Assembly (NCBI GenBank): GCA_046485285.1
Contig: JAWOHE010000001.1
Coordinates: forward strand, 1-27,234
DNA length: 27,234 bases
Direction: 5' to 3'
From: a bacterium
GTDB lineage: Bacteria > Hydrothermota > Tepidihabitantia > Tepidihabitantales > Tepidihabitantaceae
Part shown: positions 1 through 13,617 of the stretch, piece after piece
Numbering within the stretch: the first letter of the stretch is position 1
How the letters are laid out: every line of letters starts with the position of its first letter
Program-made: the position numbers and the translations under genes
Notes under the pieces: model-generated
What the model saw: only the letters and a program-made list of their open reading frames with translations
Told to the model about the DNA's origin: nothing
Databases searched by the model: none

Positions 1-842
1 CTCGTGTCTATCTCCCAGTGGCCGGATTCGTGCGCAGTATCATCCTTGACCCAGGTCGACTCGACACGCGAACTCGCCCACTTCGGCGTGTAGCACAGTA
101 TGAGATACGGCTTGATGCCCCGGTCCCTGAGGGCGAACATCGCGGTGTCATACCTGCCCGCGAAGTTGAAGCCGCCCCCTGATTCAGGCTGTAGCGACTC
201 CCACTCCAGACCTTCTCGCGCCCACCCGATTCCGACTGCCGCGGCCGAGTCCGACCAGGCATCCCAGCCCTCCACGGGATTAGCGCCCTGCCGCCAGTCC
301 CTCCACATCGCCAACTGGAACAGATGCGAGCCGAACAGATTGTTCTCGGTCCGGGCGATGCCGTAGACCCGCAATGCCAGGTCGCTGGTGTCCGGGACGC
401 CGGGTGCGGTCAGACTTCCGTGCGGATACGGGTCGGTCGGGTCGTAGGCGAAGGAAATCGGCGCGCCGCCTTCCCGGGTGAATGTGGCGGTAAGCGTCCG
501 TCCGCGGGTTAGTTTTGCATCAGTCATCTCCAGGTCGAAATGAACCCAACCCCACATTCTTTGCGCGGGAACATTGAGCTTCGATGCAATTTCCGTATTG
601 CCGTCTTTGATGACGACATGATATCTCCCGCCTGAGAACGTATCTCCGACCCAAAGACTGACTTCCGTCAACGAATCCGCCACGTTGATGAAGGTCTGGG
701 AGATTTGGTTATTGGGCGGTACGGAATCGGTCAACCCGATGTAGTTGCGATACGGGACTACTTCATAGAATTTCATCCCGGCCAATAGTATTGTCGGTGC
801 TATCAATCCTATCAGCACCGCCAGTGCTGACTTTCGAATCAT
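1..842 (-). CDS. Secreted glycoside hydrolase-like protein (GH-A clan, GH5/GH39-like TIM-barrel start), 3' end outside window
   Basis: Not in the ORF track because it has no stop in the window. I translated it by hand: ATG at 842 after an AGGAGG SD, MIRKSALAVLIGLIAPTILLAG (signal peptide), open for 280 codons to the window edge. Includes AAAVGIGWAREGLEWESLQPESGGGFNFAGRYDTAMFALRDRGIKPYLILCYTPKWASS, a pattern typical of the first strands of GH-A barrels. Confidence 0.7.
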   Translation of the reverse strand, partial: MIRKSALAVLIGLIAPTILLAGMKFYEVVPYRNYIGLTDSVPPNNQISQTFINVADSLTEVSLWVGDTFSGGRYHVVIKDGNTEIASKLNVPAQRMWGWVHFDLEMTDAKLTRGRTLTATFTREGGAPISFAYDPTDPYPHGSLTAPGVPDTSDLALRVYGIARTENNLFGSHLFQLAMWRDWRQGANPVEGWDAWSDSAAAVGIGWAREGLEWESLQPESGGGFNFAGRYDTAMFALRDRGIKPYLILCYTPKWASSRVESTWVKDDTAHESGHWEIDT

Positions 843-862
843 CTGAACCTCCTTATGGGTTC

Positions 863-3103
863 TTACTTTTTCACGAACTTGTATGTCTCTCGTCTGTCCG
901 GCAGGTCAAGCCTGAGGAAGTAAACCCCCGGGCTCATGCCGCCAAGGTCGAGCGTTGCGCTTCTGCCACTGTACCGGGCTTTGCCCCGGCTATACAACAC
1001 CTCCCTTCCCGCCGCATCATACACGGCGATAGCCACGACTGCGCTTTCCTGCACCTTGATATTCAGCCACCGCCCGGCCGGATTCGGCGTTACCAAAGGT
1101 CCGGTTGCGGGCGGATGGTCCGGCCAGCCATCTGCCATACCGGTCGGCACGGTCTCGAATATGCTTATACCGGCATCTCTGACAGCCACATAAATATGAG
1201 GGTCGTTCCAATGTAATCGGCCTCCGGTCCATGGCAGAGGATGATATGCGAGCACCTGCATATTGTGCGGGTCTGCGATATTGGCCAACCGCAGACCATC
1301 GGAACAAGATAGATATGCCAGCGTGTCAACGACAACGACATCATAAACCATCCGGCCAAAGGTCAGTGAGTCTACCGGGTGCGGCGATGTCGGGTCCCGG
1401 ACATTCCAGACATGCAGGCCGACCGCGGCCAGGTAGGCCAGGTTATCTTTGACAAAGGCGTTCCATGTTCCAAGAGGAATGGAGCCAATGATAATAGGCA
1501 GGGTCGGGTCGCTCACGTTGATGACCGAAAGCGGATAGGTCGAAACGTAGGCCAGCGTATTCTGCAGGTGCATGCCATAAGAGTACTCCGGCAGCCTCAC
1601 CTCTCCTACCACCCGCGGCTCCCGGGGCCGGGCAACGTTGAAGATGTGAAACTCACCGTCAATGGCGACATAAAGCAGACTATCCCGTAGAACCATGCTT
1701 TTCGGGCGATTGGGAAGGTCATACCCTCCGGCCATACGCGGATTCGTAGGTTCCGTAACGTCGACAGAGCGGAGATTCGGCCGCCCCCAGTCCACGAAAG
1801 CGAAGCTGTCTCTGGCTACGACCGAATGCTGTGTTACTCTTTCGGTATTCGCCGTGTCAATACCACCAATCCAGTAAGGCCGGGTCGGTTCGGTCACATC
1901 TAACACTACCAAGCCCGCTCCGCCGCTGGAAACATATGCCGTTCCGCCATCCAGCGACAGGTCACGGCTTATGCCGACCCGTAGCGCCACCGTGTCAACA
2001 ACCGGTTGATTGAGATTGCCGGTATTGATGATATACGTCCCACCCAGGTCGTCGGCAACAATGGCAAACCGTCCGGCACTGCTACCCCAGACCCCAAAGT
2101 TCTGACCAATGGTCGCACACGAACCGAGTACAACCGGGCTTGCGCTGTTGCTGATGCTCAGTATGCGGAACTCGTGCCCGCCGGTGTAGTAACCCGACAG
2201 GAACGCCAGCGAGTCATCGAGGTGTATTTCGTAACCACCGCAGCTGTCCAGTCGAGAGAGTATCCGCATCGCGGCCGGGTCCGCTATGTCGAGTAGCGTA
2301 AGTCGCAGCCATTCCGGTTGGTTGAGGTCATATTGGGTCACGAGGCAGGTATTGCCCCGGGCAGCGACACTGAGAATGTTGCCTCCCCAGGTACCGACTC
2401 GGTACGGCGATGCCGGGTTACTCACGTCAATCGCATCGAGACCATGACGGTTGGCCAGGAACGCAGTATTCCCGGCTACCGATACCGACGTACCGATGTC
2501 CTGTGACGCTCCAAGCAGCCGCGGGTCTGCTGGGTCGGCTACGCTGTAGACCTTGAACGAGTCGTGACCGACGGTATAGACCAGAGTATCCTTCACATCA
2601 AACCCGAGCAGGTCTGTCGCGATATTGGACCGATGGACCGGGCGCAAAGGGTCGGAGATATTGTACGTCTCCAGACCATCCGCTAAAAGGAACAGCAACG
2701 AGTCCCTGACCTGCACCTGCGACACAAGGTAGTTGCAGTTAATGTCGGCCAGAACATCAAGCCGGAGCCCCCCTGAACGGCGTAAACGCAGCAGACTTGC
2801 ACCGGAACCCCGGGCAAGCACTATGATAGTGTCGTTCGGTGTGGCGCGTACATCGACATCGAAAACCGGGCCATAGGACCAACGCCCAACGCAGATAAGA
2901 GTTTCCGCTTCCGGCATGTTGCCGGGGCGTTGATACATGCCCTCAAGCCCACGGTCCTGCAACCAGAGGTAGCGAAGCCTTGGAGGAATCCTTGAGAGCG
3001 AATCCATCACCGCCTCATGCGCGGCGAAGTCGGCCATCCGGCCCTGTCCGAACGCGAGGCAGAGCATTCCCACCAACCCGAGAAGAACCGCTGTCATTCT
3101 CAT
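863..3103 (-). CDS. Secreted LVIVD-repeat (beta-propeller-like) protein with T9SS type A-like C-terminal sorting domain
   Basis: N-terminal signal peptide; many 'AYV...GLxxxDVSNPxxP' LVIVD-type repeats; C-terminus TPNPA...VYDAAGREV...LGGMSPGVYFLRL...YKFVKK. Confidence 0.85.
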   Translation of the reverse strand: MRMTAVLLGLVGMLCLAFGQGRMADFAAHEAVMDSLSRIPPRLRYLWLQDRGLEGMYQRPGNMPEAETLICVGRWSYGPVFDVDVRATPNDTIIVLARGSGASLLRLRRSGGLRLDVLADINCNYLVSQVQVRDSLLFLLADGLETYNISDPLRPVHRSNIATDLLGFDVKDTLVYTVGHDSFKVYSVADPADPRLLGASQDIGTSVSVAGNTAFLANRHGLDAIDVSNPASPYRVGTWGGNILSVAARGNTCLVTQYDLNQPEWLRLTLLDIADPAAMRILSRLDSCGGYEIHLDDSLAFLSGYYTGGHEFRILSISNSASPVVLGSCATIGQNFGVWGSSAGRFAIVADDLGGTYIINTGNLNQPVVDTVALRVGISRDLSLDGGTAYVSSGGAGLVVLDVTEPTRPYWIGGIDTANTERVTQHSVVARDSFAFVDWGRPNLRSVDVTEPTNPRMAGGYDLPNRPKSMVLRDSLLYVAIDGEFHIFNVARPREPRVVGEVRLPEYSYGMHLQNTLAYVSTYPLSVINVSDPTLPIIIGSIPLGTWNAFVKDNLAYLAAVGLHVWNVRDPTSPHPVDSLTFGRMVYDVVVVDTLAYLSCSDGLRLANIADPHNMQVLAYHPLPWTGGRLHWNDPHIYVAVRDAGISIFETVPTGMADGWPDHPPATGPLVTPNPAGRWLNIKVQESAVVAIAVYDAAGREVLYSRGKARYSGRSATLDLGGMSPGVYFLRLDLPDRRETYKFVKK

Positions 3104-3109
3104 GCTGTC

Positions 3110-3137
3110 ATTGTCGGCCTGACTCCGCCGCCGTCAA
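3110..3137 (-). promoter_or_regulatory. sigma70-type promoter for the LVIVD gene (leaderless arrangement)
   Basis: Minus strand TTGACG-16 nt-GACAAT, then 6 nt, then ATG at 3103. Confidence 0.55.
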
Positions 3138-3211
3138 GCGAATCCTGCCCCGCGTGTCAATACTCAGTATCGACTTCCCCGGCCCCCGGGCTGTCCGGGA
3201 AAGGAGCCGGT

Positions 3212-3409
3212 CTACTCCACCAGCACCTGCCGGCTGGATTCGCCGGTGTCCTGCCTGCGGACGAAGTACACACCCCGGGCAAGGTGCCGGACGTCATTCT
3301 CGCCGGGCTGGAGCAGGGCGACCCTGCGGCCGTCCGGCGCGTACAGCCCGACGCCCTCGGTCCCGGCGAGATGCACCGAGTACCGCGCCGGGTTGGGCCG
3401 GAGCACCAC
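3212..3409 (-). pseudogene. Stand-alone/remnant T9SS-like C-terminal domain (65 aa) without cargo
   Basis: VLRPNPARYSVHLAG...GLYAPDGRRVALLQPGENDVRHLARGVYFVR...RQVLVE has the PNP, YxxxGRxV, LxxGVYFVR and terminal beta-strand CTD motifs. In-frame TGA lies 5 codons upstream; no signal peptide or SD. Confidence 0.65.
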
Positions 3410-3472
3410 GGTCGGGAAACATCATAGACGGCCCGACCCCGCGCCGGCTCCGCGGCTCCCCTTCGCGGGGAT

Positions 3473-3500
3473 TTGACAGCCGGGTGCGCTGGGCTACAAT
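3473..3500 (+). promoter_or_regulatory. sigma70 promoter of tRNA-Met
   Basis: TTGACA (3473-3478)-16 nt-TACAAT (3495-3500), ending 8 nt before the tRNA 5' end. Confidence 0.8.
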
Positions 3501-3508
3501 CACCGTCC

Positions 3509-3582
3509 GGCGGCGTAGCTCAGATGGCCAGAGCTGGAGAATCATAATCTCTGAGTCAGGGGTTCGAGTCCCTTCGCCGCCA
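3509..3582 (+). tRNA. tRNA-Met (CAT), most likely elongator; CCA not encoded
   Basis: Acceptor GGCGGCG/CGCCGCC, D-arm GCTC/GAGC, anticodon arm GGAGA-ATCATAA-TCTCT, T-arm AGGGG-TTCGAGT-CCCTT, discriminator A followed by CTA. G1-C72 pairing and no GGG/CCC anticodon stem argue against initiator; Ile2 is not fully excluded. Confidence 0.93.
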
Positions 3583-3705
3583 CTAGCTTGACAACCTGCC
3601 GAGCGCCAGGCTGCGGCGGCACCCGCCGGGGGTGCCTGCCCGCCGTTGCTGACCGCCGAGCCGGGCGGGCCGCGAGTCCCGCCCTCGTTCCCGCAAGGAG
3701 GCAAT

Positions 3706-6432: not shown

Positions 6433-6461
6433 ATTCTAGGAACGCAAGCGCCGGCTGTCAA
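6433..6461 (-). promoter_or_regulatory. sigma70 promoter for the SLBB gene (leaderless arrangement)
   Basis: Minus strand TTGACA-17 nt-TAGAAT-7 nt-ATG(6425). Confidence 0.75.
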
Positions 6462-8851
6462 TCGCGGGCCGGTGCGAGCTGGACGAGCAGGCTCGCGAGC
6501 TTCAGCCCGGCCACCACCCCGCACGCCCATCCCAGCCCGGCGACCGGCACCGCCAGCATCGGAACGGCGAGGATGCCGGCGAGCCCGCCGGCCAGGTCCG
6601 CGGCCGCGAGCCGGCCGATGCGGCGGCGGACCGCCATCCCGCCCGGCGCCGACGCGGCGACCGGGAACTGGTAGCCCAGCGCGCACCCGGCGAGCGTGAG
6701 CAGCGGGAACTGGACCCAGCCGGGAGGGATCCGGCCGGCCGGTACGACGACCAGCGCGGCCGCGACCAGCGCGACCTCCGCCGCCAGGAAGCCGCGCCTG
6801 AGGTCAAACCACGAAGTCACGCATGCCGGGCAAACCACGAAGGCACAAAGAGTGGTTCTTGGGTTCGGACCCCAGCGTCTTCTGTCTTCGTGTCTTGGTG
6901 TCGAATCCGAATCTGTGTCTTGGTGTCTTCGTGTTTCGTCCGGTGTCCCTCTCCCTCTTGGTGTTGAATCCGGCGCCCCGCCCCGGGCCGCGCGGCTGAC
7001 CGCCGCCGCGCCCAGCCGCCCGCCCAGCACGGTCCCGGACATGAAGCAGGCCAGGAGCAGGACGACACCGGCATAGAGCGCCCCGGTCGCGGCCTGGAAG
7101 GCGAACATCGCGACCGTCACGAGCGCGCTGCCCGCGAAACCGGAAGTCGCCACCGCCAGCGTCCGCCGCCCGGCCTCGCCGCGGCGCGACGCCAGGAGAA
7201 TCGCCACAAGCAGGATGACAAGCGTGGCCGCGAGCGCGGGACTGGAGGCCCGGCGCAGCAGGTCCCCGGGATCCGGGCCCGAAAGGCCGGCCTCGCGCGC
7301 CCGGTGGGCGACCGCGAGGAAGAGACCGCGCGGGTGCGCGTCGGTGCTCAGGCACGAGGTCCTGTCCCCGCACCAGCCCGGCCCGGCCGCGGCCGCCAGC
7401 TCGCGCTCGAGCCGCTCGCCGCGGAATCGGTCGAGGAGCCGGGTAAGACCGGCCGAATCGAGGACCAGGCCGCCGGCCGCGCCATCCCGGTGCCAGCCTG
7501 CGAGCCGCGCGCCCGCGTCCGGCGCGCCCGCCAGCGGCCCCGCGCCGGCCACCAGCACCGGCAGGTCGAGCGGTAGGACCGCTACCGTGTCGAACGCCTC
7601 CGCCATCGTCACCCGGCTCGACTGGTACAGCCGGGCCGCGGACCGGCCCGCGCCGGCCGTCAACCAGTCGAGCGGCACCGCGACGACCCCCCCGGTCCGA
7701 AGCCGGCGGCGGCAGAGGCGGAAGAACTCCACTGTCGCGAGCCGGCTCGCCGAAAGGCTCAGCGGTACCGGGCTCGGGCCGATGATGCAGTCGAATCGCT
7801 CCTCCGCCGCCCGGGCGAGGAACCGGCGCGGGTCGTCGTGCACGACCCTCACCCGCCCCTTGCCGGCCGACGGCCAGTCGGCGCCGGCCCCGACGATACG
7901 CTCCAGCAGCAGCCGGTCCTGTGCCACCAGCGTCAGCTCGGCGGCCGGCAGCTCGAGCAGCGGCGGTACGAACCCCGCGCCGCCCAGCACGAGCACGCTC
8001 TGCTGTTCGGCTGCCAGCAGGGCCGGCACGACCGCCGCCTGCTCCACGCCCAGCCGGTCCGCGGGCGGAAGTGCCGCCACCGCGACACCGTCCGAGACGA
8101 CCACCCGCTCGGCCTCGCGCGTCAGCGTCACGGTCTTGCCGAACGGGCTGTCGGCGACCTCCTCGACCCGGAAACCGGGCCAGGCCGCCTGCCAGGCCAG
8201 CCGCTCCGAGGCCCGCGCGGTCAGCGCCGCCGCGACCAGCGCGACCGCGGTGACGACGGCCGGCAGCCGGCGCATCCCGCCCGCGGCGGCCCCGGCCGCC
8301 AGCAGGGCGGCCCCGAAGCCGGCCACGACCGCCAGGCCGGGCGCGGCGGCGACCAGCGCCGCCGCGACGACCAGACCGCCGGCGGCGGCACCGAAACCCT
8401 CCCACGCATAGCCCTGCCCGACGCCGCCCGCACCGGCGGTGTCCGCGTGGCGGCCGCAAAACTCGACGAAGAGCCAACCATGCAACAGCGCCGGCAGCGC
8501 GGACACGAGCGCGGCAGCCCCGGCGACGGCCGCGGGCCCCGGCTGCTCGCCCGCCAGGAGGCCGAACAGCGGCCGCGTCAGCGTCGCGGCCGGAACCGCC
8601 AGCGCCGACAGCACCGCCACCGCAATGCCGGCCGCGGTCATCGCCCCGGGCCGGCCGGTTGCGCGGAAGCCGCCCGCCAGCCGCGCCCCCAGCGCCTCCA
8701 GGCCCAGCCAGGTCCCGAGCACGACCGCCGCCGTGAACTCGCTGCCGGCGTACGCGGCCATCAGCTCGCGCATCACGACCGCCTGCGCCGCCAGCCCCTG
8801 GCCGCCGAGGATGAACAACAGCGCCACCATCGGGCGGGCCTCGCGCGACAT
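6458..8851 (-). CDS. Membrane-fused spermidine synthase-like protein (N- and C-terminal TM domains flanking a degenerate SAM-binding-like domain)
   Basis: QAVVMRELMAAYAGSE N-terminal membrane motif, DSPFG, SVLVLGG, DDPRRFL, TVEFFRLCRRRLRTGGVV, STDAHP, FQAATGALY, ADLAGG. Matches the fused MFS/spermidine synthase architecture. Confidence 0.8.
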   Translation of the reverse strand: MSREARPMVALLFILGGQGLAAQAVVMRELMAAYAGSEFTAAVVLGTWLGLEALGARLAGGFRATGRPGAMTAAGIAVAVLSALAVPAATLTRPLFGLLAGEQPGPAAVAGAAALVSALPALLHGWLFVEFCGRHADTAGAGGVGQGYAWEGFGAAAGGLVVAAALVAAAPGLAVVAGFGAALLAAGAAAGGMRRLPAVVTAVALVAAALTARASERLAWQAAWPGFRVEEVADSPFGKTVTLTREAERVVVSDGVAVAALPPADRLGVEQAAVVPALLAAEQQSVLVLGGAGFVPPLLELPAAELTLVAQDRLLLERIVGAGADWPSAGKGRVRVVHDDPRRFLARAAEERFDCIIGPSPVPLSLSASRLATVEFFRLCRRRLRTGGVVAVPLDWLTAGAGRSAARLYQSSRVTMAEAFDTVAVLPLDLPVLVAGAGPLAGAPDAGARLAGWHRDGAAGGLVLDSAGLTRLLDRFRGERLERELAAAAGPGWCGDRTSCLSTDAHPRGLFLAVAHRAREAGLSGPDPGDLLRRASSPALAATLVILLVAILLASRRGEAGRRTLAVATSGFAGSALVTVAMFAFQAATGALYAGVVLLLACFMSGTVLGGRLGAAAVSRAARGGAPDSTPRGRGTPDETRRHQDTDSDSTPRHEDRRRWGPNPRTTLCAFVVCPACVTSWFDLRRGFLAAEVALVAAALVVVPAGRIPPGWVQFPLLTLAGCALGYQFPVAASAPGGMAVRRRIGRLAAADLAGGLAGILAVPMLAVPVAGLGWACGVVAGLKLASLLVQLAPARD
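6805..6972. repeat. REP-like palindromic repeat cluster inserted in frame in the spermidine-synthase-like gene
   Basis: AT-richer patch in very GC-rich coding DNA. CAAACCACGAAG at 6805 and 6831; complementary CTTCGTG/TCTTGGTG units at 6885-6936; TCTTGGTGTYGAATCCG at 6893 and 6956. Confidence 0.7.
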
Positions 8852-8857
8852 CAGAGC

Positions 8858-8885
8858 ATCCTATGCCGCCACCCGGCCGGGTCAA
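8858..8885 (-). promoter_or_regulatory. sigma70 promoter for the spermidine-synthase-like gene (leaderless arrangement)
   Basis: Minus strand TTGACC-16 nt-TAGGAT-6 nt-ATG(8851). Confidence 0.65.
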
Positions 8886-8891
8886 TCCGGC

Positions 8892-8919
8892 TTGACTCCC
8901 GGTGCCTCCGTGCTACCAT
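8892..8919 (+). promoter_or_regulatory. sigma70 promoter of the nikR-ABC operon
   Basis: TTGACT-16 nt-TACCAT with extended TG. Confidence 0.65.
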
Positions 8920-8936
8920 CGGCGAGAAAGTGACAC
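8910..8936. promoter_or_regulatory. Candidate NikR operator GTGCTAC-N13-GTGACAC
   Basis: Two 7-bp half sites 13 bp apart, each one mismatch from the GTGTTAC/GTAACAC dyad. They overlap the -10 box and the nikR GTG start. Confidence 0.6.
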
Positions 8937-9370
8937 GCGGAAGAACGACCCGTAGCGCCCTGGCTCCGACCGTCCGCTTCGGGGTATCGATGGAACCGGC
9001 CCTGCTCGCCCGGTTCGACCGGCTCCTCGACCGCAGCGGCTACTCCTGCCGGTCCGAGGCGCTCCGGGACCTCGTCCGGCGCCGCCTCGACGAGGACCGC
9101 CAGCGCGAAGAGGACAGCGACGTCGTCGGCACGGTCACGATCGTCTACGACCACGAACAGCACGACCTCGCCCACCGTCTGACCCACATCCAGCACGACC
9201 ACCACGCGACGGTCGTCGCCAACGTCCACGTCCACCTCGACCCGCAGAACTGCCTCGAGGTGCTCATCGTCCGGGGACGGTCGAGCCGGGTGCGCCGGCT
9301 GGCCGACGAGTTGATCGCGACCAAGGGCGTGCGCCACGGCCGCCTGAACCTGACAGCGGCCAGGGACTAG
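8930..9370 (+). CDS. nikR: Nickel-responsive transcriptional regulator NikR
   Basis: Ribbon-helix-helix VRFGVSM...RSEALRDLVR; ACT-like domain VGTVTIVYDH; metal ligands QH and HVHLDPQNCLE. This is the C-terminal part of ORF 7838..9370; GTG 8930 chosen as start. Confidence 0.93.
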   Translation: MTRGRTTRSALAPTVRFGVSMEPALLARFDRLLDRSGYSCRSEALRDLVRRRLDEDRQREEDSDVVGTVTIVYDHEQHDLAHRLTHIQHDHHATVVANVHVHLDPQNCLEVLIVRGRSSRVRRLADELIATKGVRHGRLNLTAARD

Positions 9371-10203
9371 TGACCGGTACCGGCGGCCACGACGCGGGTG
9401 TCTTCGTGCGGCGCCCGCTTGTCCTGCTCGCCGCCGTCCTGGCGCTGTCCGGACCGGGCTGCGGCGGGCGAAATCCCCGTCCGGTCGTCGTCGGCACCAC
9501 CGCGAACATCACGGCAGTCGTCGCCGCGGTCGCCGGCGACCGGGTCGAGAACGTCACCCTCGCCCCGGCCGGAATGTGCCCGGGCCACTTCGACGTCCGG
9601 CCGTCGCACGTCGCGGCCGCGGCCCGGGCCGACCTGATCATTCGCCAGGGCTGGGAGGAGTGGTTCGATGACCTGGCCCGGTCCCTGCCCGAACCGCGCC
9701 CCCGGGTCGTCACCGCCGCAACCGGCGGCAACTGGATGCTGCCCGAGGTCCACCGCCTGGCGGTCTTGGAGCTGGCCGGCCTGCTCGCCGGGCTCGACAC
9801 CGCACTTGCCGACACCTTCAAACTGAACGCCGGGCGCTACCTCGCCCGGGTCGACTCGGCGTCCCGGGCCGCCCGCGCGCTCCTCGCCGGCCGCTCCCTG
9901 CCGACCGCCATCGCCGCCGAACACCAGGCCCCGCTGCTGCGCTGGCTGGGCTTCCGCGTCGTCGCGACCTACGGCCGGCCCGAGGATTTCACTGCCCGCG
10001 AGCTGAGCCGTCTTGCCCGGGTCGGCATCGATTCGGCGGTCGGCCTGGTCGCAGACAACCTCCAGTCCGGGCCGGACGCCGGCGGGCCGCTCGCCGCCGC
10101 GTTCGGCGCCCGGCACGTCAACCTGACCAACTTCCCGCTCGAAGACGACTACCCGGCCACCCTGCTTGAGAGCGCCCGTACCATCGCCCGCCTGCTCGAG
10201 TGA
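9370..10203 (+). CDS. Metal ABC transporter substrate-binding lipoprotein (ZnuA/TroA family, divergent ligands)
   Basis: Lipoprotein-like signal (LLAAVLALSGPGC), VVVGTT...VAGDRVE, CPGHFDVRPS, ADLII..GWE. Start is GTG 9370 or GTG 9406. Confidence 0.85.
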   Translation: MTGTGGHDAGVFVRRPLVLLAAVLALSGPGCGGRNPRPVVVGTTANITAVVAAVAGDRVENVTLAPAGMCPGHFDVRPSHVAAAARADLIIRQGWEEWFDDLARSLPEPRPRVVTAATGGNWMLPEVHRLAVLELAGLLAGLDTALADTFKLNAGRYLARVDSASRAARALLAGRSLPTAIAAEHQAPLLRWLGFRVVATYGRPEDFTARELSRLARVGIDSAVGLVADNLQSGPDAGGPLAAAFGARHVNLTNFPLEDDYPATLLESARTIARLLE

Positions 10204-10237
10204 GCCGGCGGCAGTCGTGACGCAGGAGCCGCCGCCA

Positions 10238-10975
10238 ATGCCTCTGGCCGACTGCGCGGTCCGGCTCGACCGGGTCAGCGTTTCGTACTACGAGCACATC
10301 GCCCTGCGCGACGTTTCGCTCATCCTCCGCCGACGCGAGTTCGCGGCAATCATCGGGCCCAACGGCGCCGGCAAGACTACCCTGCTCACCGTTGTCAACG
10401 GCCTCGGCAACATCCGGGCCGGGAAGGTCGAGGTACTCGGCACCGGGCTCAGTCGGCGGACGGTGCGCGGCCTGCGCCGCCGAATCGGCTACGTTCCCCA
10501 GCACCTGAATGTTGATCCGCGCACGCCGCTTGACTGCCGCGAAGCGGTCCTGCTTGGCCGGGTCGGCCGGGCCGGGCTCCTGCGTCGGCTCTCGCCGGCC
10601 GATAACCGGGCGACCGAGCGCGCGCTCGAGATGACCGGGATGGCCGCGCTCGCCGACCGGCCGGTCGGCCACCTCTCGGGCGGCGAGGCCCAGAAGATCA
10701 ACCTCGCCCGGGCCCTCGCCCAGGAGCCGGAGATTCTCCTGCTCGACGAGCCCTTCGCCAACCTCGACCCGCACGCCGGGGACGAACTCGAGGCACTGGT
10801 CAGCGCCGCCCACGAGCAGTTCGCCCTCACCACCATTCTCGTCACCCATCGCGTTGACCGGCTGCCCGCGCCCTGCCGCCGGATAATCCTGATGAAACAG
10901 ACCCGGATCGTCTTCGACGGCGACCGGGCCGCGGCACTTGCCCCCGCGCGCGTCGCCGCGCTTTTCGCGGGATGA
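10238..10975 (+). CDS. Metal ABC transporter ATP-binding protein (ZnuC-like)
   Basis: GPNGAGKTT Walker A, IGYVPQ, LSGGE signature, LLLDEP, VTH; AGGAG SD before ATG 10238. Confidence 0.92.
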   Translation: MPLADCAVRLDRVSVSYYEHIALRDVSLILRRREFAAIIGPNGAGKTTLLTVVNGLGNIRAGKVEVLGTGLSRRTVRGLRRRIGYVPQHLNVDPRTPLDCREAVLLGRVGRAGLLRRLSPADNRATERALEMTGMAALADRPVGHLSGGEAQKINLARALAQEPEILLLDEPFANLDPHAGDELEALVSAAHEQFALTTILVTHRVDRLPAPCRRIILMKQTRIVFDGDRAAALAPARVAALFAG

Positions 10976-11769
10976 ACATCCCCGCCCTGCTGCCCTGGCA
11001 GATCGCCGCCGCGGTCCTCGGCGGCGGGGCCTGCGGCCTGGTCGGGGTCTGGGTGGTGCTGATGCGGATTCCGTTCGTCGGGGTGGCGATGTCCCACGCC
11101 GCGTTCGCCGGCGCGGTCTTCGGCCTGCTCGTCGGTGTCAACCCGCTCGTCGCCGCGACCGCCGCCTGCGTCCTCGCCTCGCTGCTGATCGGCCCGCTCG
11201 CCGAGCACTCCGACCTCGAACCCAACGTCTCGGTCGGCATCATCTTCTCGCTCGTGCTCGGCCTTGCCTTCCTCGGCATCGGGCTGATGCCCGGCCCGCG
11301 CACCGCCGCCTTGCGCTATGTCTGGGGAAGCATCCTGCTGGTGTCGGCCCGGGACGTCGTCGTGATGGCGGCGATGGCCGCGGTGGTCGTCGCTTTCCTG
11401 CTCCTGTTCTTCAAAGAAATCCGGGCCGTGCTCTACAACCGCGAGGTCGCCCGGGCGGTCGGGATCCCCGAGCGGCCGCTCTTCTACGCGATGCTCGTGC
11501 TCTGCGGGCTGACCGTCACCGCCAACCTCGACACCATCGGCGGCCTCCTGATCTTCAGCCTGATTGTCAACCCTCCTGCCGCCGCATTCCAGCTCACCTG
11601 GCGCCTGCGGACGATGTTCCTGCTCTCCGCCGCCTTCGGCATCGGGTCGTGCCTGGTCGGGCTGGGTGTGTCCTACCTCACCGACGCGCCCTCGGGCGCG
11701 GTCATCATCATCACCTCGAGCGCAGTCTTCGGGCTGACGCTTCTCTTCTCGCCCAAGCGCCGGCGCTGA
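10972..11769 (+). CDS. Metal ABC transporter permease (ABC-3/ZnuB-like)
   Basis: GVWVVLMRIPFVGVAMSHAAFAG, YVWGSIL, ARAVGIP, GGLLIFSLIVNP, DAPSGAVII. ATGA overlap with the ATPase stop. Confidence 0.92.
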   Translation: MNIPALLPWQIAAAVLGGGACGLVGVWVVLMRIPFVGVAMSHAAFAGAVFGLLVGVNPLVAATAACVLASLLIGPLAEHSDLEPNVSVGIIFSLVLGLAFLGIGLMPGPRTAALRYVWGSILLVSARDVVVMAAMAAVVVAFLLLFFKEIRAVLYNREVARAVGIPERPLFYAMLVLCGLTVTANLDTIGGLLIFSLIVNPPAAAFQLTWRLRTMFLLSAAFGIGSCLVGLGVSYLTDAPSGAVIIITSSAVFGLTLLFSPKRRR

Positions 11770-11790
11770 CCGCCGGACTCGCCCCGGCGG
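11770..11790. terminator. Hairpin filling the gap between convergent permease and pckA stops
   Basis: CCGCCGG-ACTCGCC-CCGGCGG; no U-tract. Confidence 0.4.
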
Positions 11791-13617
11791 CTACTTGCCC
11801 GGGCACTGCCGGGCGACGCCCGGCGCGATGCGCTTCGCGCCGTAGGCCCGGTCGAAGTGCGCGCAGAACTCGGCCGCGAGCCGGCGCGCCCGTTCGTCAT
11901 AGGCCTCCGGATCGGCCCAGGTCCCGCGCGGGTTGAGCAGGCCGGGGTCGGCGACGCCGGGACAGCTCTTTGGCACCCGGAGGTGAAACGTGCCATCCTC
12001 CGAGTACTCGACCCCGTCCAGCCCGCCCGCCAGCGCCGCCTCGACGATCTCGCGCGTCAGGCTGATGTCCATCCGCCGGCCGGTTCCGTACGGCCCGCCG
12101 GACCAGCCGGTGTTGACGAGGAAGACCCGCGACCCGTGGCGATCGAGCCGCTCGCCCAGCAGGCCGGCGTAGACGTCCGGGTTGCGGGGCATGAACGGGG
12201 CGCCGAAGAACCGCGAAAAGGTCGTCTTCGGTTCGACGATGCCGGTCTCGGTGCCGGCGAGCTTCGACGTGTAGCCCATCAGGAACCAGAGCATCGCCTG
12301 CTCGCGCGTCAGCCGGGCGACCGGCGGCAGGACGCCGTTGGCGTCGGCGGTCAGGAACAAGATCGTCTTCGGGTGACCGCCGACCGGCAGCGGCTTGATG
12401 TTCGTCAGGAACGACAGCGGGTACGACCCGCGCGAGTTGGGCGTGTAGCGCTCGTCGTCGAGGTCGAACCGCCCGTCGGGGTAGACCATCGCGTTCTCGA
12501 CTATCGCCCCGTGCTCGGCGGCCGGCGCGGCGTGGAAGCAGGCGTTCCAGATCTCCGGCTCCTTGTCGCGCCGCAGGTTGATGAGCTTGGCATAGCAGCC
12601 CTGCTCGAAGTTGGCGATGCCGGCGTCCGACCAGCCGTGCTCGTCGTCGCCGAGGAGCGCCCGGCGCGGGTCGGCCGACAGCGTCGTCTTGCCCGTGCCC
12701 GAGAGGCCGAGCAGCAGCGCGACGTCGCCCCCGGCGCTCTCGTTCGCCGCGCAGTGCAGCGGCAGGATGCCCTCCGCCGGCAGGTAGTAGTTCATCACCG
12801 TGAACCCGAGCTTCTTGACGCTCCCACCGTAGGCCGAGCCATAGACCACGCCCAGCCGCCGGTCCATATCCATCGCGATGACCATCGTCGAGGTGTGGCC
12901 GAGCCGCGGGTCCACCCTCAGCCGGCCGCGGTAGCGCTCCGGGTCGAGCTTGTCGTAGGGCAGGACGACCAGCGTGAAAGACCGGGCGGCGAAGCAGGAC
13001 CGGCCGATATCGGCCGGGACGGTGCGGTTCTGCGGAAGACCGGTGACGAAGTCCTTGCCGCGGCCCGGCCCCGGCAGGGGCCGGCTCTGCGGAAGACCGG
13101 TGACGAAGTCCTTGCCGCAGCCCGGCCCCGGGAGGGGCCGGCTCTGCGGAAGACCGGTGGCGAAGTCCTTGCCGCAGCCCGGCCCCGGGAGGGGCCGGAA
13201 CATGTTGTCAGTGAAGAGCGCAGTGAGCGCCCGGTCGGTCACGGTCCGGATCGGCAGTGCGTACGCCGGGTCGGCGCCGAGACAACGGTCGGTGACGTAC
13301 AGCCGCGGCTTGGCCGCGAGCGTCCCGAGCGCGTCATCGAGCACCATCGCCATCGTCTCCGGGTCGAGTGGGACGTTGTTGGGCGAGTCCCAGTCGATGG
13401 TGTCCTCGGACTCGGGCCGCCGGACGATGCAGGTGTCCTTCGGGCTTCGGCCGGTCGACTCGACAGGGGTCCAGGTCGCCAGAGCGCCGCAAGCCGCGAC
13501 CATCGCCTCCCGGCGTCGCTCCGCCTCGATGATGAGCACCCCGCGCCCGGGGTTCAGAAGGACATCACGGTGGTCCTGGAGCAGGGCATCGAGCCTGCCG
13601 ACGAAATCCCCGCTCAT
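11791..13617 (-). CDS. pckA: Phosphoenolpyruvate carboxykinase (ATP), with a 57-aa tandem-repeat insertion
   Basis: TGRSPKD, YGGSVKK, PLHCAAN, GLSGTGKTTLSAD, GDDEHGW, GCYAK, GYTSKLAGTE, LVNTGWSGG motifs. Confidence 0.95.
   Translation of the reverse strand: MSGDFVGRLDALLQDHRDVLLNPGRGVLIIEAERRREAMVAACGALATWTPVESTGRSPKDTCIVRRPESEDTIDWDSPNNVPLDPETMAMVLDDALGTLAAKPRLYVTDRCLGADPAYALPIRTVTDRALTALFTDNMFRPLPGPGCGKDFATGLPQSRPLPGPGCGKDFVTGLPQSRPLPGPGRGKDFVTGLPQNRTVPADIGRSCFAARSFTLVVLPYDKLDPERYRGRLRVDPRLGHTSTMVIAMDMDRRLGVVYGSAYGGSVKKLGFTVMNYYLPAEGILPLHCAANESAGGDVALLLGLSGTGKTTLSADPRRALLGDDEHGWSDAGIANFEQGCYAKLINLRRDKEPEIWNACFHAAPAAEHGAIVENAMVYPDGRFDLDDERYTPNSRGSYPLSFLTNIKPLPVGGHPKTILFLTADANGVLPPVARLTREQAMLWFLMGYTSKLAGTETGIVEPKTTFSRFFGAPFMPRNPDVYAGLLGERLDRHGSRVFLVNTGWSGGPYGTGRRMDISLTREIVEAALAGGLDGVEYSEDGTFHLRVPKSCPGVADPGLLNPRGTWADPEAYDERARRLAAEFCAHFDRAYGAKRIAPGVARQCPGK
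13025..13198. repeat. 3 x 57-bp tandem repeat inside pckA
   Basis: Units start at 13025, 13082 and 13139 and encode (R)PLPGPG[CR]GKDF[AV]TGLPQ[SN] three times. Confidence 0.95.

Follow-up and report, generated by a model that had tools for sequence, protein, structure and literature searches.

We describe here a four-gene operon carried by a 27,234-nucleotide stretch of DNA from a bacterium of the Hydrothermota (family Tepidihabitantaceae; GenBank assembly GCA_046485285.1, contig JAWOHE010000001.1, positions 1 to 27,234), which we call the window and which always means that whole stretch. The operon joins the gene of the nickel-responsive repressor NikR to those of an ATP-binding cassette (ABC) transporter of the zinc/manganese family, whose binding protein carries a Cys-Pro-Gly-His (CPGH) loop in the region of the canonical metal site. 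We consider it likely that this operon encodes a NikR-repressed, autoregulated nickel importer that feeds [NiFe]-hydrogenases, and we infer the metal, its ligands and the repression from regulatory and comparative evidence. The parts of the system are the following.

8892-8919, plus strand: sigma-70-like promoter, TTGACT, 16 nt, TG-extended TACCAT, by consensus match
8910-8936, plus strand: predicted NikR operator, GTGCTAC-N13-GTGACAC, overlapping both the -10 hexamer and nikR's GTG start codon
8930-9370, plus strand: nikR, nickel-responsive ribbon-helix-helix repressor, 146 residues, by Pfam and NCBIfam profiles
9370-10203, plus strand: ZnuA-fold (cluster A-I) lipoprotein, a substrate-binding protein of 277 residues with the CPGH site, by Pfam ZnuA, structural model and alignment
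10238-10975 (likely ATG start; reading frame open from TTG 10166), plus strand: ABC ATPase, ABC_tran 110.3 bits, 1.5e-31
10972-11769, plus strand: ABC-3 family permease, 265 residues, ABC-3 (PF00950) 171.7 bits, 2.8e-50

An earlier, sequence-only reading of this DNA had taken nikR, a cluster A-I binding protein, an ATPase and an ABC-3 permease for a single operon, and all of these parts are indeed there, head to tail on the plus strand and enclosed by two minus-strand genes. The tight coupling that it claimed for the first two genes is real: the last base of the TAG stop codon of nikR (9368-9370) is also the first base of the GTG at 9370 with which the reading frame of the binding protein begins, which makes the overlap TAGTG. 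The ATG of the permease likewise overlaps the stop codon of the ATPase. The GTG of nikR is the sole canonical in-frame start upstream of the ribbon-helix-helix strand VRFGVSM. For the binding protein, an alternative GTG at 9406 gives a more typical signal peptide (MRRPLVLL...GC), in which C31 is the lipobox cysteine, and for the ATPase the ATG at 10238, preceded by an AGGAG at 10223, is likelier than the TTG at 10166. These alternative starts leave the operon unchanged.

The regulator of the window is, as far as its sequence tells, an orthodox NikR with a predicted operator of the nickel type. Both NikR domains are present, NikR_C with 110.8 bits (cut-off 22) and RHH_1 with 22.5 bits (cut-off 20.5), and the product matches the NCBIfam NikR equivalog NF003381 with 181.3 bits (cut-off 105). 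In an alignment of NikR from Escherichia coli K-12, the window NikR and three relatives, H76, H87, H89 and C95 (E. coli numbering) are invariant, and we take H76', H87, H89 and C95 to be the high-affinity nickel site of the E. coli protein. The intergenic region ahead of nikR is 78 bp long, and the stretch 8750-11900 contains two promoter-like sites against 0.1 expected from 50 shuffles. The predicted operator has two-fold symmetry, a spacer within the 13-14 bp range and a position next to the promoter. Its model is the NikR signal GTGTTAC-[N13/14]-GTAACAC, derived for delta-proteobacteria, of which the variants GTgACAC and GTGccAC are listed in Table 4 of the same work (PMC545781). A degenerate form of this pattern matches once in the window and in none of 100 shuffles; it also has a single match in the whole 2.34-Mb assembly, where the reversed control pattern has none. 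Since the assembly contains just one NikR_C match as well, the operon is the sole predicted target of NikR at this stringency. The idea, also raised by the sequence-only reading, that this might be a NikR paralogue sensing another metal is disfavoured, because the four nickel ligands of E. coli are kept and the operator is of the GTGTTAC-N13-GTAACAC type.

The binding protein belongs to the ZnuA family (PF01297; 58.2 bits, cut-off 29). None of the NCBIfam equivalogs fits it; AztC comes closest, with 27 bits against a cut-off of 350. Its motifs had been read correctly, and the translation places them at M69-C70-P71-G72-H73-F74-D75 (MCPGHFD), at G119-G120-N121-W122-M123 (GGNWM, in which the His of DPHxW is lost) and at A182-A183-E184-H185-Q186 (AAEHQ). 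Profile alignment puts the four canonical ligands at the following positions.

Ligand 1, His of the DPH loop: aligns with G72; C70 replaces the Asp, and H73 comes one position after the canonical His
Ligand 2, His of DPHxW: aligns with G120; the Trp is retained as W122
Ligand 3, Glu in the PsaA type and His in the AdcAII type: E184/H185, the canonical His falling on H185
Ligand 4, Asp or Glu: aligns with N254 or falls in a deletion beside N254-F255-P256

The four-ligand set of cluster A-I (His, His, His or Glu, Asp or Glu) is not retained in this alignment. Of the canonical numbering, E205 and D280 as ligands of PsaA are backed by the titles of PDB entries, and we presume the rest. The third site is variable across the family, where position 184 can be E, D, S, R, K or N and position 185 H, R, Q, M or Y, and is followed by an invariant Q186.

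What has replaced the canonical ligands is widely shared. A word-indexed search returned 107 relatives of the binding protein, an exhaustive one 856 cluster representatives at E ≤ 1e-3, 74 of them at E ≤ 1e-30, and a pattern scan of species-representative genomes at least 600 matching stretches, of which at least 559 loci were confirmed. CPGH is found in 222 of 253 homologues, and the full-length exceptions mostly have CPAH, CPSH or CPGQ. In an alignment of 123 relatives, C70, P71, P125 and N230 are invariant (123 of 123), and H73, D75, G120, D229, Q232, S233, N254, F255 and P256 are conserved at 90% or more. C70 and H73 probably hold Ni(II), which M123 and D75 may help to hold, and the invariant amide residues that we name as the shell of the site are N121, Q186, N230, Q232 and N254.

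The AlphaFold2 model built on this alignment (predicted local distance difference test 93.7) has the two Rossmann-like lobes and the long helix of the cluster A-I fold, with helices at 125-142 and 144-172. Its nearest structures by Foldseek are ZnuA, YfeA, PsaA and MntC, with template-modelling scores of about 0.72-0.77 and 15-20% identity (1pq4, 1psz and 5uxs are among the matches). Judged by their place in the four loops that bear the ligands of canonical family members, C70, H73, M123, Q186, Q232 and N254 would line a single pocket. There is no His-rich stretch in the translation and no long low-confidence loop after residue 35 of the model. The PDB contains no solved structure of the CPGH subfamily, as its best sequence match reaches 25 bits with the single sequence and 71 bits with the profile; all PDB matches are canonical Mn, Zn or Fe proteins, Foldseek returned the same set, and the ESM Atlas gave generic "Zn/Mn family" clusters only.

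At the level of the phylum, we compared a sample of 201 genomes of the Hydrothermota, that of the window included, and the counts that follow are uncorrected for relatedness. A genome was called a carrier when it matched the subfamily profile at E ≤ 1e-30, while canonical binding proteins reach only about 1e-18 with the same profile, and it was called NikR-positive when NikR_C scored over its cut-off, four weaker matches being dropped. On these definitions there are 42 carriers, 86 genomes with NikR, 41 with CbiM/NikM and 149 with a match to the [NiFe]-hydrogenase large subunit. NikR is present in 39 of the 42 carriers, as against 47 of the 159 non-carriers, whereas CbiM/NikM occurs in none of the 42 carriers and in 41 of the 159 others. 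The 86 NikR-positive genomes divide into 39 with the CPGH system only, 32 with CbiM only, none with both and 15 with neither, and a [NiFe]-hydrogenase match accompanies the system in 40 of the 42 carriers. When the coordinates were compared by eye, 16 of the 42 carriers had nikR on the strand of the binding-protein gene and no more than about 2.5 kb upstream of it, and 21 of the 32 CbiM-only NikR-positive genomes had nikR next to CbiM. Two families (f6 and f14) hold genomes of both kinds, so the switch between the two systems happened more than once. This alternation with CbiM is the pattern that would be expected if both systems did the same job under the same regulator.

Across phyla, we analyzed the best 80 of the at least 559 confirmed loci, which come from species-representative genomes of many phyla and total 726,563 bases (single loci are cited as L001 and so on). 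The closest named relatives of the window system are metagenome-assembled genomes labelled candidate division WOR-3, and the window permease is 58-86% identical to those of the WOR-3-labelled loci L001-L019. A nikR gene is present in 30 of the 80 loci, a TonB-dependent receptor gene in 42 and both in 29; when only the 58 loci whose upstream sequence is 2.6 kb or longer are counted, the figures are 26, 34 and 25. The sequence-only reading had staked its proposal on a linkage of CPGH-type proteins to nikR in other genomes, and such a linkage is what these counts bring out. The receptor has about 600 residues, with plug and barrel, its nearest NCBIfam models are those of B12, heme and siderophore receptors, and the usual order of genes is nikR, receptor, binding protein, ATPase, permease.

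The operator recurs among the same loci. A scan of the 80 loci found 11 boxes without mismatch (block-shuffle mean 0), 21 with at most one (0.19) and 27 with at most two (3.3). At three mismatches the boxes are mostly noise (62 observed, 47.5 in shuffles), so we counted boxes with at most two. Of these 27 boxes, 23 stand at the start of a nikR or receptor gene, from 40 nt inside to 250 nt upstream; two of the remaining four lie about 600 nt upstream of nikR, in L006 and L013, and two are elsewhere. Among the 70 loci that could be evaluated, a box near the front of the operon is found in 16 of the 27 that begin with nikR, in 7 of the 9 in which the receptor comes first, with no nikR ahead of it, and in none of the 34 that begin with the binding-protein gene, which are mostly from Firmicutes and Chloroflexi with some WOR-3-labelled records. 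In L013, two small membrane-protein reading frames (112 and 91 residues, at 3072-3673) occupy the space between the box (3032) and nikR and carry VEHIAHQE and VDHILGYEGG; L006 is similar. Those of L013 are possibly extra components of a nickel operon.

The window operon itself has no receptor gene. No orthologue of it turned up elsewhere in the genome, where larger receptors gave only weak matches to the plug domain (31-32% identity over 143-176 residues). L001, the closest relative, retains just an in-frame stub of the receptor gene, of 163 residues, between nikR and the binding-protein gene (1076-1564); in this stub, the counterparts of residues 24-94 and 526-607 of the L007 receptor follow each other directly, so that the start of the plug meets the last strands of the barrel. 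As in the window, nikR and the binding-protein gene are direct neighbours in L008. These three observations indicate that the lineage shed the receptor and kept the inner-membrane system.

Other genes recur at the related loci. A class-I S-adenosylmethionine (SAM) methyltransferase of about 200 residues (Methyltransf_11/25) is found in 35 of the 80, for instance at L020:8265-8900, L059:8480-9073 and L044:5157-5765; it lies below the cut-off of every NCBIfam model, and in some loci (L025:7540-9021, L069, L080) it forms the C-terminal part of a fusion with the ABC-3 permease. It is absent from the window and from L001-L019. Proteins with an FmdE domain (5 loci) or a TrmO_N domain (4 loci) also recur beside the transporter, as at L062:8413-8829 and L046:5263-5724. 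In the NikR-less Moorella thermoacetica locus (L059:1-5700), the system comes immediately downstream of a FecCD-type transporter of the chelate ABC kind, which is accompanied by several binding proteins, O-methyltransferase-like reading frames and a 256-residue one without NCBIfam match.

The genome of the window (2.34 Mb, 88% complete) encodes two large subunits of [NiFe]-hydrogenases with the motifs RxCGxC and DPCxxC, the signatures of these enzymes. The system would then work as follows. When nickel is scarce, apo-NikR would leave the promoter free, so that NikR, the lipid-anchored binding protein, the ATPase and the ABC-3 permease are made. The binding protein would capture Ni(II) through Cys70 and His73, as a bare ion or a small complex, and pass it to the permease, with ATP hydrolysis driving import; the nickel would thereby become available to the two hydrogenases. 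When nickel is sufficient, Ni-NikR would occupy GTGCTAC-N13-GTGACAC, covering both the -10 element and the start codon, and turn the operon off. The sequence-only reading had proposed that a Zn/Mn-family ABC system had been re-specialized for Ni(II) or Co(II) with a Cys-His site, and for nickel this proposal is supported by the linkage to nikR, the operators at the front of the operons and the exclusion of CbiM.

Several observations weigh against such an importer, or against extending it to the whole family, and the uncorrected relatedness of the phylum counts is one of them. At the window, the box departs from the GTGTTAC-N13/14-GTAACAC consensus at two positions. Among the related loci, L001 has no box with at most two mismatches anywhere, and 11 of the 27 nikR-first loci, L001, L006 and L013 included, lack one close to nikR. 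The 34 of 70 evaluable loci that start with the binding-protein gene lack both nikR and any box with three mismatches or fewer, and no NikR was found in four of the five such genomes tested, the Moorella thermoacetica record among them; because of these NikR-less carriers, nickel specificity may not extend to the whole family. In the window's own genome, we found no CbiM (PF01891), NiCoT or HupE/UreJ in an assembly that is 88% complete, and peptide-type NikABCDE was not searched for. The binding protein is moreover the only PF01297 protein of this genome and, given that, may have a residual role in zinc or manganese uptake. Finally, no more than two evident protein ligands are conserved, which leaves room for a complex, or something different, as the actual ligand.

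This last point leads to the alternative that survives best, although we still think it unlikely, namely that the protein binds not the free Ni(II) ion but a pre-formed nickel chelate, a different thiophilic species, for example Cu(I), or a small cofactor that contains sulfur, with Cys70 and His73 completing the coordination and the amide shell binding the organic part. In its favour, just two of the conserved side chains resemble metal ligands and lie amid many invariant Asn and Gln, and the TonB-dependent receptor that precedes its gene in 42 of the 80 relatives resembles receptors for B12, heme and siderophores. The SAM methyltransferase of 35 of these loci, sometimes fused to the permease, points the same way, and NikA and NiuB bind complexes of the Ni-(His)2 type. 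However, neither the window nor the rest of its genome retains the receptor, and the operon has no methyltransferase, yet the three transporter genes are intact, and ABC-3 permeases are known for ions, not chelates.

Uptake of cobalt, or of nickel and cobalt indiscriminately as in the Cbi/NikMNQO and NiCoT families, is improbable for this transporter, although cobalt may be the substrate in those branches of the family that lack NikR. Co(II) can be bound by thiolate-imidazole sites, many of the NikR-less carriers are Firmicutes and Chloroflexi, and the Moorella locus neighbours FecCD-type chelate transporters. One of 14 NikR-less loci, L052, even has a cobalamin riboswitch on the same strand, but 4.6 kb upstream, and the other 13 have none. 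Control by such riboswitches was accordingly rejected, on this Rfam search, as a general rule for NikR-less loci, and the Rfam search of the window returned one tRNA and no riboswitch. Against cobalt, the window operon has NikR and a NikR operator, and the alternation with CbiM is specific to NikR-positive genomes.

As for a zinc or manganese importer whose adjacent NikR homologue senses that same metal, as proposed with zinc for Methanothermobacter (MTH603-606; PMC3087415), we find it very hard to uphold: this is the only ZnuA-family binding protein of the genome and public records name its relatives "zinc ABC transporter substrate-binding protein", but these names are automatic, a ZIP-family transporter is present that could supply zinc, three canonical ligand positions are lost or variable, the first of them replaced by Cys-Pro-Gly-His, NikR retains H76, H87, H89 and C95 with a nickel-type operator, and the component that the system excludes, CbiM/NikM, is one for nickel and cobalt rather than zinc.

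The nickel importer proposed here can be set beside the known systems. With the E. coli system, in which NikR represses nikABCDE (PMC2667541), it shares the regulator family, the four nickel ligands of NikR and the clustering of the regulator gene with those of a binding-protein-dependent ABC importer. It differs in that NikA and NikBC are of the peptide type, with two permeases and two ATPases, whereas the window has a ZnuA-fold protein and an ABC-3 permease, with one of each; nikR is the first gene in the window and the last in E. coli, and the operator half-sites are of the GTGTTAC type here and GTATGAT there (PMC545781). Closer in its regulation is the energy-coupling factor (ECF) type NikMNQO/NikKMLQO, whose operons were predicted to be under NikR in delta-proteobacteria (Rodionov et al. 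2004, PMC545781), with the same GTGTTAC-N13/14-GTAACAC consensus and the same position beside nikR. Unlike these, the window operon has no CbiM/NikM, no ECF T-component and no S-component, and capture would fall to a periplasmic lipoprotein of a different fold. The operon would act like nikR-nikABCDE or nikR-nikMNQO while being a member of neither; its parts are structurally those of the Mn/Zn/Fe-chelate ABC family.

Within that family, ZnuABC, PsaABC, MntABC and TroABCD have the same two-lobe fold with its long helix (125-172 in our model) and the same permease and ATPase families. They differ by their canonical His, His, His-or-Glu, Asp ligands, where the window protein has the CPGH loop and is 15-20% identical to them, by the His-rich loop of the zinc-specific ZnuA proteins, which is absent here, and by their regulators Zur, MntR, Fur and TroR in place of NikR. 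The 42 relatives with a TonB-dependent receptor also recall Helicobacter, where NiuBDE, an ABC importer that is not NikA-like, functions with the NikR-regulated receptors FrpB4 and FecA3. NiuB and NiuD are of the CeuE/FecCD (cluster A-II) type; in contrast, the window permease matches FecCD with 15.8 bits, below the 26.5-bit cut-off, and the window lacks a receptor. FrpB4 and FecA3 are themselves listed as nickel transporters (PMC11247825).

The one related statement in the literature searched concerns Methanothermobacter, in which Kaster et al. (2011, PMC3087415) noted a nikR homologue adjoining ZnuABC; the passage of that paper on MTH603-606 reads the adjacency as possible zinc sensing and describes no change in the binding site. 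A homologue search seeded with an archaeal member of the subfamily gave 1538 matches at E ≤ 1e-10 among 8000 candidates, with no methanogen name in the best 120. In that literature, neither a Znu-type nickel importer under NikR nor the CPGH site is described, although an earlier mention is possible. The transporter lists of two nickel-transport surveys comprise NikABCDE-type, Nik/CbiMNQO, NiCoT, HupE/UreJ-type and TonB-dependent systems, and no Znu-type one (PMC2667541, PMC11247825).

Around the operon, the window contains the following features.

8885-8858, minus strand: divergent promoter-like site for the minus-strand gene, back to back with the operon promoter, by consensus match
6458-8851, minus strand: gene of a fused major facilitator superfamily/spermidine-synthase-like protein, divergent from the operon
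11791-13617, minus strand: phosphoenolpyruvate carboxykinase gene, convergent with the operon

The carboxykinase gene contains a 57-nt unit repeated 3.2 times (93% matches; 13014-13198), which amounts to three in-frame copies of the 19-residue PLPGPGCGKDF.TGLPQ.R that are absent from the L007 orthologue (608 residues against 551). The G+C content is 0.57-0.58 in positions 1-3000 and 0.66-0.77 elsewhere in the window, with a tRNA gene (3509-3582) near the change, which may mark the edge of an island.

Nickel serves hydrogenases, CO dehydrogenase/acetyl-CoA synthase, urease and methyl-coenzyme M reductase, so any survey of nickel use depends on recognizing the importers. On balance, and with less assurance than for the window operon, we favour the view that CPGH ZnuA-fold ABC systems constitute a further major class of prokaryotic nickel importers, widespread in anaerobic and candidate phyla, which replaces NikMNQO under the same NikR operator and has a thiolate site unlike that of any solved binding protein. 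Their partners, the TonB-dependent receptor, the SAM methyltransferase and the FmdE-domain proteins, would point to an unexplored route for the hand-over of nickel or nickel complexes. If this is true, thousands of genes named "zinc ABC transporter" would be misannotated (at least 559 loci are confirmed and 856 cluster representatives match), many anaerobes that seemingly lack a nickel importer would have one, and the ZnuA fold would gain a thiolate-based site, and with it a test case for rewired metal selectivity.

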